NCBI GenBank assembly: GCA_964511435.1
Contig: CAZEFH010000002.1
Span: 8,416 to 72,415, forward strand
Source of the DNA: an uncultured Candidatus Saccharibacteria bacterium
GTDB taxonomy: Bacteria > Patescibacteriota > CPR2 > UBA1875 > CAIMLA01
Length of the DNA stretch: 64,000 nt
Direction: 5' to 3'
The translations under genes were made by a program, and so were the position numbers. Shown piece after piece: positions 1,402-64,000 of this stretch. Numbering within the stretch: the stretch's first letter is position 1; every line of letters begins with the position of its first letter. Under the pieces are notes generated by a model. That model was not told the DNA's origin. It did not search any database and saw nothing but the letters and a program-made list of their open reading frames with translations.

Positions 1402-2169
1402 ATGCAATACAAAGTTCCACAAAACATTGATATCGAAGACAGGGTGATCGCCGGGCTGACTCTACGACAGTTCATGTTTATTATGATTGCTGGAGGCATC
1501 GGACTCCTAGAATACTTCGCCTTGAAGGGACCGCTTAGTTTTCTCTTTCTTCCTGCCGCCATCGTCACAGGTGGTGTCGGGGTGGCCTTTGCCTTCATCA
1601 AGATCAATGATCGTCCTTTCGAAGCCTTTGTCTCTGCAGCCATCAAGTCACTCTTTGCTCCGCATACGAGAATCTGGCAGAAGGACGAGGATGCCGACAT
1701 CCCCAAGCATACAGAGACCCCACACACTCGTGCCAAGGTAGCGGCACCAAAAAAGAAAACTATCGGTGAAATCAAAAGCAATCTAGAAAGGCTATCACTA
1801 CTTGTGGACTCTGGTGGCGCAGCCGGTCTGGAAAGTATGCCAGAGAGGCCCACAAACCTCAACATGAGTACAAAAACAGCAGAGCCGAGTGACCTGCATG
1901 ACATCCTTGCCAAGACGGAGGAGGCAGCTCCTACGGTAGATGCTATCATGAATCAGGCCAAGGAATATGTAGAGAAGACAAGCGCAGCCAAGGAAAAGCC
2001 CGTGAGCGCTATGGCCACTACAGCCGCGAAGCCCACAGACTTCGAGTACGAGAAGCTCGCCCTCTCTGACGAAAAAAAACTAGAAGAAACTCTCGCGAAG
2101 GTCAATGCCGAGCAAAAAGCCCTCAAAGATAAGCTCGAAACCGCCAAGATCGAGAAGTTTGAACGATAG
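1402..2169 (+). CDS. PrgI/VirB3-like small membrane protein of Gram-positive-type T4SS
   Basis: The N-terminus (MQYKVPQNIDIEDRVIAGLTLRQF) is followed by two TM helices, typical of the PrgI family. A charged, coiled-coil-like C-terminus follows. The gene lies upstream of VirB4. Confidence 0.45.
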   Translation: MQYKVPQNIDIEDRVIAGLTLRQFMFIMIAGGIGLLEYFALKGPLSFLFLPAAIVTGGVGVAFAFIKINDRPFEAFVSAAIKSLFAPHTRIWQKDEDADIPKHTETPHTRAKVAAPKKKTIGEIKSNLERLSLLVDSGGAAGLESMPERPTNLNMSTKTAEPSDLHDILAKTEEAAPTVDAIMNQAKEYVEKTSAAKEKPVSAMATTAAKPTDFEYEKLALSDEKKLEETLAKVNAEQKALKDKLETAKIEKFER

Positions 2170-2188
2170 ACATTAGTTTCTAAAGTTA

Positions 2189-2217
2189 AAAAGTTTGTAA
2201 AGTTTGTAAAGTTATAA
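2189..2217. repeat. Left arm of an inverted repeat (AAAGTTTGTAAAGTTATAA, with an extra tandem AGTTTGTAA copy) flanking the four-helix-bundle gene
   Basis: The reverse complement of 2651..2669 exactly matches 2199..2217. Confidence 0.8.
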
Positions 2218-2221
2218 CGAC

Positions 2222-2566
2222 GTGAAAATTGAAAGATTTGAAGACATTCTTGCTTGGCAGAAAGCTAAGGAATTAAACATTATCATTTATTCGGCAATGA
2301 GGGATTGCGGAGATTATTCCTTCCGCGACCAACTCCAGCGGGCATCTGTTTCGATAATGAATAACATCGCAGAAGGTTATGAGCGCAGGAGTAACGCCGA
2401 ATTTAAACATTTTTTATTTATTGCAAAGGGGTCGTGTGGTGAATGTAGGTCCATGCTAGACCTTGCGAAGGAGCTTGCCATGTTCGAAGAAACGGATTTT
2501 AGCAAAGCATATGACTTGTCAGTAGAAATTTCAAGAATATTATCTGGCCTCATAAAAACTTTGTAA
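2222..2566 (+). CDS. Four-helix bundle protein (23S rRNA intervening-sequence protein family, TIGR02436-like)
   Basis: The residues WQKA..L, RDQL.RASVSI..NIAEGY.R and F.HFL.IAKGSCGE form a hallmark signature of this family. The ORF starts with GTG. Confidence 0.75.
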   Translation: MKIERFEDILAWQKAKELNIIIYSAMRDCGDYSFRDQLQRASVSIMNNIAEGYERRSNAEFKHFLFIAKGSCGECRSMLDLAKELAMFEETDFSKAYDLSVEISRILSGLIKTL

Positions 2567-2600
2567 ACCTTTAACTTTATACTTTATGAACTAATCGGTG

Positions 2601-2614
2601 TTTATGCTAAAATA
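2601..2614 (+). promoter_or_regulatory. Promoter-like extended -10 motif TTTATGCTAAAATA (copy 1 of 3)
   Basis: The same 14-mer occurs at 27268..27281 and 40698..40711, each time just upstream of a + strand gene. It contains TGnTAAAAT. Confidence 0.4.
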
Positions 2615-2650
2615 ATACTAGTTGTATCGTTCGGGAAAACTTGAAGAACT

Positions 2651-2669
2651 TTATAACTTTACAAACTTT
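2651..2669. repeat. Right arm of the inverted repeat flanking the four-helix-bundle gene
   Basis: TTATAACTTTACAAACTTT is the reverse complement of 2199..2217. Confidence 0.8.
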
Positions 2670-2692
2670 TCACTAAAATTCCTGGAGGGAAT

Positions 2693-3412
2693 TTGTCTGA
2701 TACAAAATATGACAAAAAGGTAAAGGCCCCTTCTACCCAGCAGTTTATTCCTATTAAGGAAATCAAAGAAGGGGTGGTAGTAATGCGAAATGGGTCACTG
2801 AGAGCCGTGCTCTTGGTGTCTTCTCTAAACTTTGCCTTGAAGAGCGAAGACGAGAAGAATGCTGTCATCGCTTCATATCAGAGTTTTCTCAACTCTCTCG
2901 GCTACCCAGTACAGGTCTATGTCAAATCCCGTCAGCTACATCTAGACAATTACATCCACTCTTTGGAGAAACAGCTGGCGGCACAAACAAATGAGCTCCT
3001 CAAGCTCCAGACCAGCCAATACCTCGAGTTTATCGCTGAGCTGCTACAATACTCCAATATTATGGAAAAACGCTTCTTTGTTATCGTACCCTTCTATCCT
3101 ACCGGTTCAGAAAAGGTAGGCCTAATTAAAAATCTTTTTTCAGGCAAGGAAGGTGTCGCAACCGCAGACTTTGAAACCCAGAAGACTGAGCTAATGCAGC
3201 GAGTTGATCATGTTATCAATGGCCTCACTGGGATTGGCGTGCGCTGTGCCGCACTAAATACCGAGGAGCTGATTGAGCTCTACTACTCTGTCTACAATCC
3301 TGATATATCGGGCTCTGAGAAGATTACTGATGCAGACATCATTCAGTCAGAAGTAGTATCTGGTGGAGCGGCCGACAATTCTGCTACAGAGGAGGGAGCG
3401 CCAAATGCTTGA
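2693..3412 (+). CDS. VirB4/TrbE-family N-terminal domain protein (first half of a split VirB4)
   Basis: The residues QQFIPIKEIKEGVVVMRNGSLRAVLLVSSLNF..KSEDEK match the conserved N-terminus of Gram-positive VirB4/PrgJ-like ATPases. The TTG start sits after a GGAGGG Shine-Dalgarno. The stop TGA overlaps the next ATG. Confidence 0.6.
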   Translation: MSDTKYDKKVKAPSTQQFIPIKEIKEGVVVMRNGSLRAVLLVSSLNFALKSEDEKNAVIASYQSFLNSLGYPVQVYVKSRQLHLDNYIHSLEKQLAAQTNELLKLQTSQYLEFIAELLQYSNIMEKRFFVIVPFYPTGSEKVGLIKNLFSGKEGVATADFETQKTELMQRVDHVINGLTGIGVRCAALNTEELIELYYSVYNPDISGSEKITDADIIQSEVVSGGAADNSATEEGAPNA

Positions 3413-5216
3413 CGACCTATTTAATCCTCAAGCAGCCGAGGAGAAGCGTGCTAGGGAAGCAAACGAGCAGCGTCTCCAGGAGGCTGAACGTATCTACAAT
3501 GAAGGTATGGCCACTCTTAGGGACATCATCGCTCCATCGAGCATGAATGTTGAACTCGACTATATTGAGATTGGTGGTTATTTCACCAGGGCATTCTTCG
3601 TCTACACTTACCCTCGCTACCTCTACACCGAATGGCTATCGCCTGTCGTAAATGGCTCTTTCGAAGGCGACCTCTCGATGTTCATCTACCCAGTAGACAA
3701 TAAAGAGATTATGCAGAAGCTCCAGACCAAGGTAGGACAAATTCAGTCTACCGTGGCAGAACAGCAAGAGAAAGGTGCCGTGCGTGATCCAATGCTTCAG
3801 ACGGCCTACCAAGACGTCGAGGAGCTTCGTGATACCTTACAACGTGGCGAGTCACGCTTCTTTAAGATGTCGCTCTATATCAATCTATATGCCAAGACCA
3901 AGGAAGAGCTAGACCAGCTAACAGACATCCTAGAGACCAATCTCGGCGGCATGCTCGTCTATACCAAGAGGGCTACCTTACAGCAAGAAGACTGCTTCAA
4001 CTCCGGGCTTCCTCTTGGAAACGATGTCATGGACATCTCGCGCAACTTTGACACGAATGCGCTCTCGACTAGCTTCCCCTTTGTTTCGTCTGAGCTCTCA
4101 AACAACGAGGGTATCCTATATGGAATCAATAGGCACAATAACAGCCTTGTCCTCTTCGACCGTTTCACCCTCGAAAATGCCAATATGGTCGTGCTGGCGA
4201 TGTCTGGTGCGGGTAAGAGTTACGCTATCAAGCTAGAAGCGGTGCGCTCAATGATGTTCGGTACCGAAGTCATCATTATCGATCCAGAAAATGAGTATGA
4301 ACGCCTCTGTGAATCCGTCGCTGGTAGTTACCTCAACGTTTCACTAAACTCTGACTACCGCATCAATCCATTTGACCTACCCACCTCGGCTAGTGGCTCG
4401 AAGGAAGGGGAGGATATCCTTCGCAGTAATGTAATCATGATTCATGGCCTAGTCCGCATCATGCTCGGTGGTAAACTCACTGCCATCGAGGACAATATCC
4501 TGGACCGCGCCCTGATCGAGGCATATGCTTCTCGTGGTATCACTAGCGACCCATCGACCCATGGTCTCACACCACCAACCATGGGCGATCTGGAAAAAAT
4601 CCTCGGTAGCATCCAGGGTGGAGAAACCATGGGAGTCCGACTTCAGAAATACACCACCGGTACTTTCTCAGGCCTCTTCAACCAGCAGTCAAACATCAAA
4701 ATGGATAATCAATTCATCGTCTTCTCGATTCGTGATCTCGAAGACGAGCTACGGCCTATCGCCATGCATATCATCCTAAACTTTATTTGGAACCGCGTGA
4801 AGAGCGAGCGCCGTCGCAGAATGCTAATCGTAGACGAGGCCTGGCTAATGATGAAGTACGAGGATAGTGCCCAGTTTATCTACTCTATTGCCAAGAGAGC
4901 TCGTAAATATTATCTCGGCCTCACCACGATCAGTCAGGACGTAGATGAATTCATCAGCTCGAGCTATGGACGCGCTATCGTTAATAACTCATCCCTAACT
5001 CTGTTATTGAAGCAGCACCCAGCAACCGCTGACGTTATCTCAAGGGTATTCAACTTAACCCAGGCCGAGAAGTACTTTCTTCTCAATGCCGAGAAGGGCG
5101 AAGGGCTCTTCTTCGCTGGGCTCAACCATGTCGCCCTCAAGGTCACTCCGAGCTACCAGGAAGATCTACTAATTACAACTAATCCAGAGCAGCTTAACGA
5201 AATAGGAGCAGAGTAA
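3405..5216 (+). CDS. virB4: VirB4/TrbE/CagE-family conjugal transfer ATPase (ATPase half)
   Basis: Walker A (LAMSGAGKSY), Walker B (MLIVDEAW) and an IAPSS..YIEIGG...FFV.TYPR N-terminal motif are present. The ORF track starts this gene at 3363. The ATG at 3405 fits the ATGcTTGA overlap with the upstream stop. Confidence 0.85.
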   Translation: MLDDLFNPQAAEEKRAREANEQRLQEAERIYNEGMATLRDIIAPSSMNVELDYIEIGGYFTRAFFVYTYPRYLYTEWLSPVVNGSFEGDLSMFIYPVDNKEIMQKLQTKVGQIQSTVAEQQEKGAVRDPMLQTAYQDVEELRDTLQRGESRFFKMSLYINLYAKTKEELDQLTDILETNLGGMLVYTKRATLQQEDCFNSGLPLGNDVMDISRNFDTNALSTSFPFVSSELSNNEGILYGINRHNNSLVLFDRFTLENANMVVLAMSGAGKSYAIKLEAVRSMMFGTEVIIIDPENEYERLCESVAGSYLNVSLNSDYRINPFDLPTSASGSKEGEDILRSNVIMIHGLVRIMLGGKLTAIEDNILDRALIEAYASRGITSDPSTHGLTPPTMGDLEKILGSIQGGETMGVRLQKYTTGTFSGLFNQQSNIKMDNQFIVFSIRDLEDELRPIAMHIILNFIWNRVKSERRRRMLIVDEAWLMMKYEDSAQFIYSIAKRARKYYLGLTTISQDVDEFISSSYGRAIVNNSSLTLLLKQHPATADVISRVFNLTQAEKYFLLNAEKGEGLFFAGLNHVALKVTPSYQEDLLITTNPEQLNEIGAE

Positions 5217-10667: not shown

Positions 10668-10684
10668 CGCGCTCTAAACTAAAA

Positions 10685-27267: not shown

Positions 27268-27281
27268 TTTATGCTAAAATA
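27268..27281 (+). promoter_or_regulatory. Promoter-like motif TTTATGCTAAAATA (copy 2 of 3), with TTCAAT 17 nt upstream. The -10 ends 8 nt before the ATG, so a leaderless transcript is possible
   Basis: An exact 14-mer match to the other copies, positioned relative to the ATG at 27289. Confidence 0.45.
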
Positions 27282-40681: not shown

Positions 40682-40711
40682 TTGACCAATCCTGGATTTT
40701 ATGCTAAAATA
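40682..40711 (+). promoter_or_regulatory. Promoter: TTGACC -35, 17-bp spacer, then TGCTAAAAT extended -10 (copy 3 of the TTTATGCTAAAATA motif), upstream of rpmH
   Basis: TTGACC lies at 40682..40687 and TAAAAT at 40705..40710. The spacing was counted at 17 nt. Confidence 0.55.
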
Positions 40712-56707: not shown

Positions 56708-57226
56708 GTATACTAGTAACTTTTGTAGCTTGTAATAAACTGGAAGTATGGGCGACAAAAGAAAATATGCAGACCGTCGTGAATACTTGATAGCGGCAGT
56801 GTCTAAAAGAAGAAAACTTCTGCGGGCAAAGGCTATTGAATACAAAGGCGGAAAGTGTAGTATATGTGGCTACCACAAATGCGCAAATGCTCTTGATTTT
56901 CATCATTTATCAGGAAAAGACTTCAGTCTTTCCGCTGATGGAATGACGAGATCATGGGACAGAACAAGAACGGAGCTAGATAAGTGTATTCTAGTTTGCG
57001 CAAATTGCCACAGAGAAATCCATTCGCAGCTTCAGTCGGAAACGGTTGAATGAAAACTGGGTGAATTGCGGGAAACCCTAACGTTAAGTCGAGGGCAATC
57101 CGCAGCCAATCCTCATAATGAGGCAGGTTCAGAGACTAGGTGATTACACCCTAGAGCGCCCAGCACCTAAGGCATTAGCTATGGTGATGAGATAGTCCAC
57201 GCCTTGTAGAAATACTTGGATTAGTG
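56708..57226 (+). mobile_element. Group I intron (IC3-like, resembling the Azoarcus/cyanobacterial tRNA introns) carrying an HNH endonuclease ORF
   Basis: The 5' exon ends in U and the intron ends in G. The 3' core contains AATTGCGGGAAACCC, GTTCAGAGACTAG, CACCTAAGGCA and GCTATGG. These closely resemble conserved P3-P7-P9 elements of the Azoarcus tRNA-Ile intron. Confidence 0.7.
56748..57053 (+). CDS. HNH homing endonuclease encoded within the intron
   Basis: The zinc-finger and HNH motifs are CSICGYHKC...DFHHL and CANCHREIH. The length is 101 aa. Confidence 0.7.
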   Translation: MGDKRKYADRREYLIAAVSKRRKLLRAKAIEYKGGKCSICGYHKCANALDFHHLSGKDFSLSADGMTRSWDRTRTELDKCILVCANCHREIHSQLQSETVE

Positions 57227-62214: not shown

Positions 62215-62439
62215 TCCAAGCTTGATTTGGAATCCAATCTATATCTATTATCTTTGATTAATATATTTTTTGCCACCTCCTCTTGAAAGTAGGTGGCGCC
62301 AGGTTCAAGAAAAATTGAACTCCTTCATCTCAGTACGAAATTCTGCTTTGCAGTAATTTCTAGCTAGAGGGTGATAGTCGGGTGACTGTGGTCACCGAGC
62401 GATTTTTCAAAGTAGCGCACGGGAAACTTTATAAACTTT

Positions 62440-64000
62440 TTACTTTGATTTATCCATGATTGCTTTAAATTCATCTGCATCAAGAGTTTCTTTTTCGAGT
62501 AGTGCAGCAGCAACGGCTTCTAGCTTCTTCTTGTTCTTGGTAATAGTGGCCGCTGCCTTCTTATAACCTTCTTCGACAAATCTATCAACCTCAGCGTCAA
62601 TAAGGGCTGCCACTTTTTCTGAGTAATCTTTGTCGTGTTCACCTAGCTCACGGCCGAGGAAAACTAGCTCTTCGCGGCGACCATAAACGCGATTACCAAG
62701 GACATCACTCATACCATAGCGAGTGACCATTTCGCGTGAGAGCTTGGTTGCTCTCTCCATATCATTCGAGGCACCAGTTGTGACGTCAGAGAAAAAGATC
62801 TTCTCAGCTGCACGTCCGCCGAGCATCATCGCTATATCGTCCTCAAGCTCAGATTTACTAGAGAGCTTCTTGTCTTCTTCTGGCAGTGACCAGGTAACGC
62901 CGAGTGCCATGCCACGAGAAACAATCGAGATTTTGTGGATAGGATCAGTGCCGGCAAGAAGGTGGCCGACGACTGCGTGTCCAGCTTCGTGATAAGCCGT
63001 GATTTTCTTTTCTTTTTCGCTCATACCGGCGCCCTTGCGCTCTGGTCCGAGATAGACTTTTTCAATTGCCTTTTCGACGTCGATGGCAAAGATTTCCTTC
63101 TTGTTTTCACGAGCGGCAAAGATAGCGGCCTCGTTCAGAATGTTCTGAAGATCTGCTCCAGAGAAGCCTGGAGTCTGGCGTGCTATCACAGAAAGGTCGA
63201 CGTTCTTTGCAAGTGGCTTATTCTTGGCATGAACCTTGAGAATCTCCTCTCGGTCTTTGATATCGGGCATATCAAGGACTACTTTACGGTCAAAGCGCCC
63301 AGGACGCTGAAGTGCAGGGTCAAGGACATCAGGACGGTTAGTTGCTGCCATCACGATGACATTAGTATCTGTCTCGAAACCATCCATTTCAGTAAGAATC
63401 TGATTCAGGGTCTGCTCACGCTCATCATGAGATCCACCCATTCCAGTACCACGTTGGCGACCAACGGCATCGATTTCGTCAATAAAGATGATGCAAGGAG
63501 CATTCTTCTTCGCCTTGGCGAAAAGATCGCGAACACGAGAAGCACCGACACCGACAAACATTTCTACGAATTCAGAGCCAGAAATAGAAAAGAAGGGTAC
63601 TCCGGCTTCACCAGCCACAGCGCGTGCCATCAGAGTTTTGCCTGTTCCTGGTTGACCAAAAAGCAGTACTCCCTTAGGAATTTTGGCACCGAGAGCGGTG
63701 AACTTCTTTGGATGTTTTAGGAAATCAACGATTTCCATTAGTTCTTGCTTTGCTTCAGCGGCACCAGCGACGTCAGCAAAAGTAATTTTGTCTTTCTTGG
63801 CATCAGCAAGACGGGCACTCGACTTACCAAAACTCATTGCCTGATTATTGCCTCCTTGTGCCTGACGCAGCATAAAGTAGAAGAATCCGATGATAAGGAC
63901 AAACGGCACTACGGTCGTAAGTAGGGTAATCCAGATTGAATTATCGCTACCAGTCTTAATATCTATATTTACTTTACTTGGATCAGCACCGAGATCTTTG
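62440..64000 (-). CDS. ftsH: ATP-dependent zinc metalloprotease FtsH; the N-terminal membrane region runs to or past the window edge
   Basis: AAA+ Walker A (GQPGTGKT), Walker B (IIFIDEIDA), the SRH motif and the zinc site (HEAGHA) are present. The ORF track places the start at 63909, but a hydrophobic TM2-like segment is encoded just upstream. Confidence 0.9.

Follow-up and report, generated by a model that had tools for sequence, protein, structure and literature searches.

Intervening sequences (IVSs) of rRNA genes and the open reading frame (ORF) conserved within them have been on record since about 1990, with no accepted view of their origin, of how they move, or of what the protein does, and the short tandemly repeated repetitive (STRR) arrays of cyanobacteria have been unexplained for equally long. 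A 64,000-nucleotide stretch of contig CAZEFH010000002.1 from an uncultured Candidatus Saccharibacteria bacterium (here, the window) carries an IVS-type element in an operon spacer: a PF05635-family four-helix-bundle (4HB) gene lies between inverted arrays of short tandem repeats at the junction of the PrgI-like and VirB4 genes of a type IV secretion system (T4SS). An earlier note on this DNA drew attention to the gene and to a pair of inverted repeats around it; the observation is real and is more general than that note supposed. Loci from metagenomic or reference genomes that are compared with the window are identified by L-numbers.

The closest described systems are the 23S rRNA IVSs of Leptospira and Coxiella burnetii (IVS/S23p). 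The Coxiella IVS is 428 to 444 nt long and has a 28-bp stem and three to four GACAGAT heptamers directly upstream of an ORF that is reported as decaying, and RNase III cuts within the 5' stem arm, where these repeats lie. PF05635 ('23S_rRNA_IVP') genes are also reported inside cas operons, where they are taken as candidate cas-associated functions (Zhang et al. 2013, PMC3936711), and the consulted part of that article makes no mention of flanking repeats. A study of the Candidate Phyla Radiation (CPR) reports the PF05635 domain in some rRNA insertions, and flanking arrays are likewise not mentioned in the consulted part of its text. Cyanobacterial STRR sequences are tandem 7-bp hairpin units in operon spacers (hupS-hupL) and within the gene for RNase P RNA. 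In the literature searched, flanking arrays around PF05635 genes are described only in the Coxiella paper.

The spacer between the two T4SS genes spans 523 nt and has a G+C content of 35%, compared with 48% in both neighbors. It holds the following features of the cassette:

2173..2217, + strand: left forward array of five AAAGTYYRT-type units, TTAGTTTCT AAAGTTAA AAAGTTTGT AAAGTTTGT AAAGTTATAA
2222..2566, + strand: cassette ORF of 114 aa (PF05635/TIGR02436) that starts with GTG, lacks a Shine-Dalgarno sequence, and contains the motif RasvSimnNiaE
2554..2595, + strand: proximal right reverse array (RE1), overlapping the last codons and the stop codon of the ORF and forming inverted pairs with the left array
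2621..2683, + strand: second, separate insertion of 63 nt between the −10 box and the Shine-Dalgarno sequence of the downstream VirB4 gene, delimited by gap-tolerant alignment with L002 and carrying RE2
2636..2679, + strand: distal right reverse array (RE2), containing the perfect right arm 2651-2669

This organization is similar to that of rRNA IVSs, as the earlier note proposed: the PF05635 ORF is the only gene, it is enclosed by terminal inverted repeats, the 5' arm consists of short tandem repeats that run up to the start codon, the Shine-Dalgarno sequence is poor or absent, the G+C content is below that of the host, and the size is comparable (∼430 nt to the proximal right end and ∼510 nt to the distal right end, against 428 to 444 nt in Coxiella). 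The differences are that the host site is the intergenic spacer of a protein-coding operon rather than an rRNA helix, that the unit is a 9-mer (AAAGTYYRT) rather than the GACAGAT heptamer of Coxiella, that there are two alternative right arms, and that strong purifying selection acts on the ORF, in contrast to the reported decay of the one in Coxiella. In Coxiella, RNase III cleavage has been shown; here it is proposed only by analogy.

The gene is a bona fide member of the family and is kept by selection. The product scores 110.2 bits with PF05635, for which the cutoff is 33.8 (E = 7.5e-32, profile positions 1 to 106 of 106), and 107.9 bits with TIGR02436, for which it is 24 (E = 3e-31), and the R-x3-S-x3-N-x2-E core of the family motif (G)xxRxxxSxxxNxxE is present within residues QRASVSIMNNIAEG. 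It is similar in sequence to the solved pentamer Xcc0516 (2GSC; E = 7.6e-11) and to 2RLD, and may form a pentamer as well. Against the orthologous cassettes described below, nonsynonymous divergence (pN) is 0.11 to 0.19 and synonymous divergence (pS) is 0.77 to 0.98.

The left array starts 3 nt past the PrgI stop codon, ends 4 nt before the GTG, and includes the left arm of the inverted repeat that was first noticed. That repeat, AAAGTTTGTAAAGTTATAA at 2199-2217 with its exact reverse complement at 2651-2669, grows to 22 nt with one mismatch (2196-2217/2651-2672) and to 31 nt at 84% (2175-2205/2637-2667), and the tandem extra copy reported on its left side belongs to the five-unit array at 2173-2217. 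The 19-mer is not a common low-complexity word: allowing up to three mismatches it is found in the window only at the two arms and at an overlapping copy at 2190 (3 matches against 0.06 expected, with 0 of 100 shuffles reaching 3), and its 8- to 10-nt sub-words are essentially restricted to the cassette locus. In 1.2 Mb of DNA from Saccharibacteria there are only four arrays of the AAAGT type, including the two arms of this cassette.

The two right arrays differ in standing. RE1 is ∼80% complementary to the left array over ∼40 nt, GAACTAAT at its outer end is the mirror image of ATTAGTTC at the outer end of the left array, and it occupies the position of the single right array in the three closest filled loci (L162, L163, and L165). 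Because a native promoter 12-mer lies at 2602-2613, just past RE1, this array is, by sequence comparison, the canonical right end of the cassette. Gap-tolerant alignment with L002 separates two insertions, 2166-2601 (the cassette) and 2621-2683, and the latter, 63-nt insertion is missing from L162, L163, and L165; RE2 is, on this alignment, a second, lineage-specific right arm. The claim that the perfect arms bracket the cassette is thus correct for the left arm only, the perfect right arm being inside the second insertion and the canonical end being at 2554-2595. A MAFFT alignment that placed the distal right arm in native intergenic DNA is overturned by the filled orthologues and by the promoter 12-mer at 2602-2613. 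Double right arrays are seen again in several other loci, and RE2 also contains a weak promoter-like match (TTTATA-18-TAAAAT).

The array layout is a property of the protein family and not of this locus, and the units are lineage specific. It recurs in ∼95% of the close homologues, which come from Patescibacteria and Bacteroidota, and in distant members from cyanobacteria and Riemerella. A set of 80 metagenomic loci coding for proteins 58 to 72% identical to that of the window was assembled, of which 77 were scored for inverted repeats in the flanks of the 4HB gene. The median inverted-repeat score is 15, compared with 8 for 115 ordinary ORFs in the same loci, and 95% of the 4HB genes lie above the 95th percentile of these controls (P = 2e-28); direct-orientation repeats in the same flanks have a median of 9 and shuffles of about 8. 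Forward arrays are upstream rather than downstream by 54 to 6, and reverse arrays downstream rather than upstream by 81 to 11. Arrays contain 3 to 24 units, with a mode of 4 to 5 and a period that is mostly 9 nt and sometimes 7 or 8 nt, and the consensus of 153 forward and 225 reverse 9-mers from the homologous loci is AAAGT[T/C][T/C][A/G]T. The cassette is co-oriented with both neighbors in 39 of 51 loci, as it is with the host operon in the window. Most of the 80 close homologues, and most of the distant ones examined, lie between protein-coding genes, so that the IVS design of an ORF within inverted arms of tandem repeats goes along with the protein family largely outside rRNA.

Distant members of the family are also flanked by arrays, in five instances in the fetched loci and in eight of nine in finished cyanobacterial and Riemerella replicons; the ninth, PCC 7120 alpha, is in an IS-disrupted region and has a downstream array only. 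Their units and sites are as follows:

L056: unit AGCTGATAG, dnaN-recF junction
L061: unit AATTAGTAAATAG, dnaN-recF junction
L057: unit of ATCAAA type, PrgI-VirB4N junction, opposite strand
L126/L128: unit of AAATTCAAAAT type, PrgI-VirB4N junction
Nostoc sp. ATCC 53789: unit GGGAAAA, plasmid pNsp_c
Nostoc edaphicum: unit TAGGGAG, nrdB-nrdA junction, opposite strand
Nostoc sp. C052: unit AGGGAAC, after a coupling-protein gene
Anabaena sp. 90: unit GGTGACA, cas6-cas4 junction
Geminocystis: unit GGGAARA, plasmid
Picosynechococcus: unit AGGAGATA, cmr2-cmr3 junction
Trichormus: unit GGAGTCAGAAT, near VirB10
Riemerella: unit AAGGTTY, replicon deposited as a plasmid

VirB4N denotes the N-terminal part of a split VirB4. 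The inverted heptamer arrays are thereby confirmed for two cas cases, Anabaena sp. 90 (cas6-4HB-cas4) and Picosynechococcus (cmr2-4HB-cmr3), which share with the window a single small, co-oriented gene wedged into a conserved operon and differ in that the host operon here is a T4SS. Across the family, the sense strand of the upstream arm is biased toward purines and A, with purines making up more than 50% of it in 13 of the 14 unit types, a gene-relative polarity that speaks for a constraint at the transcript level. The AAAGT-array subfamily (∼70% protein identity) is also present in Bacteroidota-type contigs, at grpE-dnaJ in L169 and on a 319-kb Saprospiraceae contig in L168, which indicates horizontal spread between phyla; overall, the architecture is seen here in four bacterial phyla, to which the literature adds Coxiella.

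Several other arrangements of these cassettes occur. In L126/L128 (3001-4198) a close-subfamily cassette is upstream of PrgI and a distant-subfamily cassette is between PrgI and VirB4N, and in L085 (2591-3345) a distant member (2591-2962) is directly upstream of a close-subfamily cassette. The distant-type cassettes of L056 (15837-16217, minus strand) and L061 (14196-14594, minus strand) are at what the flanking sequence suggests is the dnaN-recF junction, ∼6 to 8 kb from VirB4, in Saccharibacteria-type T4SS loci on contigs from metagenome-assembled genomes (MAGs) labeled Nevskiaceae and Burkholderiaceae. Phage carriage was considered and set aside, one scan of viral contigs having yielded only a truncated remnant: L167 (1554-1910, an IMG/VR contig) has a truncated or fused 4HB remnant after GAGTTTRTA 9-mers that are translated within a longer ORF.

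Close relatives either have the whole cassette or lack it entirely. A locus identical to that of the window (L001) is present in the Logan run ERR3839025. The best matches of the window's VirB4 ATPase are in the Saccharibacteria MAGs L002 and L005 (91 to 92% identical), and in these, as in L003 and L006, only ∼70 to 90 nt without a 4HB gene separate the PrgI stop from the VirB4N start. Three metagenomic Saccharibacteria lineages, L162, L163/L164, and L165, have the closest 4HB homologues (72 to 79% identical), again between PrgI and VirB4N. In L162, L163, and L165 the order is PrgI stop, a forward array reaching almost to the start codon, the ORF, a reverse array that begins within its last codons, a −10 box, a Shine-Dalgarno sequence, and VirB4N. 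A neighbor-joining (NJ) tree of VirB4N groups the filled window with empty L002 and L005 (87% identity) in clade A, and filled L163, L162, and L165 with empty L003 (91% identical to L162) in clade B, with empty L006 as the outgroup. Divergence of the 4HB protein follows the host tree, and synonymous sites are saturated.

We infer one old gain in the ancestor of the clade, followed by vertical inheritance under purifying selection and two losses, as the most parsimonious history, and the cassette is probably missing from the closest relatives through loss. It is, judging from these comparisons, an old resident rather than a recent arrival, because the orthologous copies have diverged to saturation in place. 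The earlier suggestion that an IVS-like cassette had been transposed or copied into an mRNA context is therefore borne out in part: the cassette is discrete and its site is empty in the closest relatives, but orthologous cassettes with saturated synonymous divergence at the same junction in L162, L163/L164, and L165 argue against recent transposition or copying. Nothing points to an origin in rRNA, with no rRNA gene in the 64-kb window and none in any of 10 homologous loci checked with Rfam (seven with ORF-free flanks and three others). An apparent deletion scar of fused end units, seen by eye at L002/L005 (AGTTTCT...ATACTTATG) and at L003, was rejected when alignment gave only spurious small blocks.

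The long-range stem around the gene that the earlier note anticipated is predicted in both the minimum free energy (MFE) and centroid folds of 2170-2700, and with the distal arm the modeled stem is 19 to 22 bp, perfect or near perfect. The left array forms duplexes of −23.1 kcal/mol with RE1 and −25.9 kcal/mol with RE2, compared with about −10 kcal/mol for shuffles overall (−9.7 ± 2.7 for RE1), and masked MFEs are nearly equal for the two right arrays (−124.3 and −124.8). Which right array is chosen as partner depends on the transcript ends used in folding: the fold of 2170-2700 picks RE2, and the ensemble of 2150-2720 picks RE1 (29 expected base pairs against 0.3). Among the homologous loci, the arms of a locus pair better with each other than with the arms of other loci (−33.9 versus −29.9 kcal/mol, P = 5e-4).

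We moderately favor the reading of this element as a resident IVS-type cassette in a T4SS operon spacer that would be processed by RNase III, by analogy with rRNA IVSs. A single entry into the PrgI-VirB4 junction, in the common ancestor of this clade of Saccharibacteria, would have been followed by vertical inheritance and two losses. The cassette would be transcribed by read-through from the T4SS operon, and pairing of the left array with either right array would enclose the ORF in a 20- to 40-bp duplex. RNase III may then cleave the arm duplex, as in the Coxiella and Leptospira rRNA IVSs, freeing the cassette RNA and uncoupling it from the flanking cistrons, while VirB4 would retain its own promoter, located between the two right arrays. 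Such uncoupling could account for the tolerance of insertions in essential operons and structured RNAs.

A number of results weigh against this interpretation. The whole-region fold beats shuffles only modestly (z = −1.67), and arms from different loci pair almost as strongly as those of one locus, an effect of the conserved unit sequence; within the subfamily, sequence conservation beyond complementarity is thus constrained. G.U and A.C mismatches between the arms are equally frequent overall (77 to 77), with a slight tilt toward A.C among isolated mismatches (11 to 27), giving no sense-strand RNA signature, so that this test lends no support to selection for pairing in the sense transcript and the RNA reading is one that we infer. 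Left and right array lengths are often unequal, and three loci (L082, 2800-3600; L142, 990-1610; L168, 5830-6450) have arrays of the same orientation, of up to 22 units, on both sides of the 4HB gene, with L168 also having a forward-plus-reverse array hairpin entirely upstream of the gene; these layouts do not fit a simple stem around the ORF. Gain versus loss is judged from a small NJ tree of one gene, and gap-tolerant alignment with the empty site shows neither a deletion scar nor a target-site duplication, the flanks being 13 to 30% diverged. A tblastn search with an Escherichia coli Rnc query finds no RNase III gene in the 64-kb window, which is uninformative for the whole genome.

The main rival, which we consider rather unlikely, is that the arrays serve the cassette's own protein, Avd-like and pentameric, as reiterated binding sites and that complementarity of the arms is secondary. 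The protein would act like TRAP on single-stranded RNA or DNA, each protomer taking one unit, or on DNA at the two ends, and binding would either autoregulate translation, as the left array abuts the start codon, or yield a complex that mobilizes or protects the cassette. The conserved AAAGT core with a variable spacer and a period of 7 to 9 nt is as in reiterated protein-binding sites, the modal array of 4 to 5 units goes with the pentameric structure of the homologue 2GSC, and the unit sequence is kept although synonymous sites are saturated; the lack of a G.U bias between the arms, the variation of unit sequences between protein subfamilies, and the activity of the homologue Avd with nucleic acids and a reverse transcriptase also suit such a role. 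However, arrays range from 3 to 24 units, the downstream array would not present the motif in RNA, and L096, coding for a protein as close to that of the window (62% identical) as those of many AAAGT carriers, has GGGAAAA-type units like those of Nostoc and Geminocystis, showing that unit type does not strictly track protein lineage.

An unlikely explanation is that of a non-autonomous transposon at the DNA level, akin to miniature inverted-repeat transposable elements (MITEs), with a transposase or recombinase encoded elsewhere and the 4HB gene as cargo or accessory factor. MITEs and other small transposons share with the cassette terminal inverted repeats with reiterated subterminal motifs, presence/absence polymorphism in close relatives, and low G+C content, and IVSs have long been proposed in the literature as remnants of transposition. 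Nearly identical subfamily members at different junctions and in different phyla (grpE-dnaJ, dnaN-recF, cas operons, and T4SS), the tandem cassettes of L085 and L126/L128, and the absence of a strand-specific RNA signature are in line with this, but no transposase is found in or near the cassette, and neither a target-site duplication nor a clean boundary is evident against the diverged empty sites. It is also present in a single copy, with no additional one detected in the 64-kb window by tblastn or with the 19-mer and its sub-words, 1.2 Mb of related genomes contain extremely few such arrays, and its long vertical residence, with orthologous copies diverged to saturation in place, speaks against recent movement. 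Relative to the ORF, the arrays have a strongly fixed orientation, and this, with the purine bias of the upstream arm in 13 of 14 unit types, points toward a constraint on the transcript.

That the gene has been domesticated as an accessory or regulator of the T4SS, with the repeats as local regulatory or terminator structures, is improbable. Several lineages have kept it at this junction under purifying selection, separate PF05635 cassettes are present in other CPR T4SS operons (L126/L128, L086, and L057), and those of the Nostoc sp. C052 and Trichormus plasmids are near coupling-protein and VirB10 genes. But it has been lost at least twice in close relatives that retain the T4SS, the same subfamily is found in unrelated operons, and a T4SS is the context of no more than 3 of the 80 homologue loci, which is suggestive of an insertion hot spot but too few to establish enrichment. 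Among 80 reference T4SS loci, 76 have no PF05635 gene within ∼17 kb and three have one elsewhere in the locus; none has a homologue of the window's 4HB protein at the PrgI-VirB4N junction, where L057 has a distant family member on the opposite strand.

A role as the Avd accessory protein of a diversity-generating retroelement (DGR) is very improbable. In Pfam, Avd is matched by PF05635, a family enriched beside DGR reverse transcriptases, and the window protein has a homologous fold and is predicted to share the pentameric four-helix-bundle barrel, but a scan of 15 ORFs lying between 82 and 16794 (the three closest to the cassette and, from 5220 on, all of at least 150 aa) finds no reverse transcriptase, there are no template or variable repeats nearby, the neighbors are T4SS genes, a cell wall hydrolase, recF, dnaN, dnaA, and yidC, and close homologues stand singly within housekeeping operons. 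We know of no Avd genes described as flanked by inverted tandem arrays. A chance AT-rich, low-complexity repeat around an ordinary small gene, to which the 35% G+C content of the region might lend itself, is already refuted by the excess of matches to the 19-mer, by the restriction of its words to the locus, and by the recurrence of the same architecture at ∼90 independent loci, with the significance given above against neighboring genes.

A reading that unifies rRNA IVSs, operon-embedded PF05635 genes, and possibly STRR hairpins is plausible but unproven. As a tentative proposal, a PF05635 ORF between inverted arrays of 6- to 13-nt repeats could represent one widespread, so far unrecognized class of small selfish elements, in at least five phyla, occupying spacers of conserved operons (T4SS, dnaN-recF, grpE-dnaJ, nrdAB, and cas) and structured RNA helices, of which rRNA IVSs would be a special case, with STRRs and ORF-less IVSs as decayed or minimal forms and an Avd-like pentamer reading the repeats to control processing or spread. 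The arms around cyanobacterial PF05635 genes are inverted heptamer arrays of the STRR type, but STRRs are described without an enclosed ORF and in cyanobacteria only, whereas the units in the window are 9-mers in a Saccharibacterium, and a relationship between the two is at present conjectural. The association of the IVS design with the protein family as a whole turns a curiosity of a few pathogens into a class with thousands of natural variants, with cultured carriers such as Anabaena sp. 90, Nostoc, Riemerella, and Picosynechococcus. For annotation, PF05635 genes in cas, T4SS, and replication operons are probably passengers and not components of those systems.

The cassette is flanked in the window by the following features of the host operon:

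1402..2169, + strand: upstream host gene, PrgI-family T4SS protein of 255 aa (PF12666, E = 2e-14)
2602..2613, + strand: extended −10 element of the VirB4 genes, TTATGCTAAAAT, between RE1 and RE2
2684..2689, + strand: Shine-Dalgarno sequence GGAGGG of the downstream host gene, aligning with cGAGGG of L002
2693..3412, + strand: downstream host gene, TraC-like N-terminal part of VirB4 (VirB4N), TTG start
3405..5216, + strand: VirB4 ATPase part (PF19044, E = 1.2e-29; ORF 3363-5216, likely ATG at 3405)

The PrgI orthologues of L002, L005, L003, L163, and L165 stop at the same position as that of the window. The ATPase ATG overlaps the TGA of VirB4N as ATGCTTGA, and a separate Shine-Dalgarno sequence serves the ATPase gene. 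The L165 counterpart of VirB4N is a 247-aa product with a PF26593 TraC-like match, and because the same split into two genes is present in L002, L005, L003, and L165, the arrangement is conserved rather than the result of a frameshift error.

The 12-mer TTATGCTAAAAT also precedes VirB4N in the empty sites L002 and L005, with the variant TTTGTGCTAAAAT in L003, and the −10 box of the filled sites is TTTATGCTAAAAT in L163, with variants in L165 and L162. It occurs three times in the 64 kb (2602-2613, 27269-27280, and 40699-40710), each time just upstream of a + strand gene, which is rpmH-like for the 40699 copy; since it is shared with empty sites and precedes other + strand genes, it is a native promoter element, with the look of a strong consensus promoter in this genome. 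The 27269 copy is only 8 nt before an ATG, which suggests that the mRNA there is leaderless or near leaderless.

One of the four AAAGT-type arrays noted above is a solo array of three units at 62426-62445 on the minus strand, reading AAAGTAAAAAGTTTATAAAGTTT. It begins where an FtsH-like gene (62440-63909, minus strand) has its stop codon, in a 225-nt spacer before a MurJ-like gene; no 4HB ORF is near it, and it may be the remnant of a lost cassette. The T4SS operon of the window adjoins the dnaA-dnaN-recF origin region, in which the dnaN-recF spacer is just 17 nt (10668-10684) and hence empty of a cassette. No tRNA or rRNA host gene is detected around a group I intron at 56968-57219 (+ strand; full-length RF00028 match, 85.6 bits), the 5' side of which is overlapped by a 101-aa ORF (56748-57053, + strand) with HNH-like CxxC...HH...CxxCH motifs.

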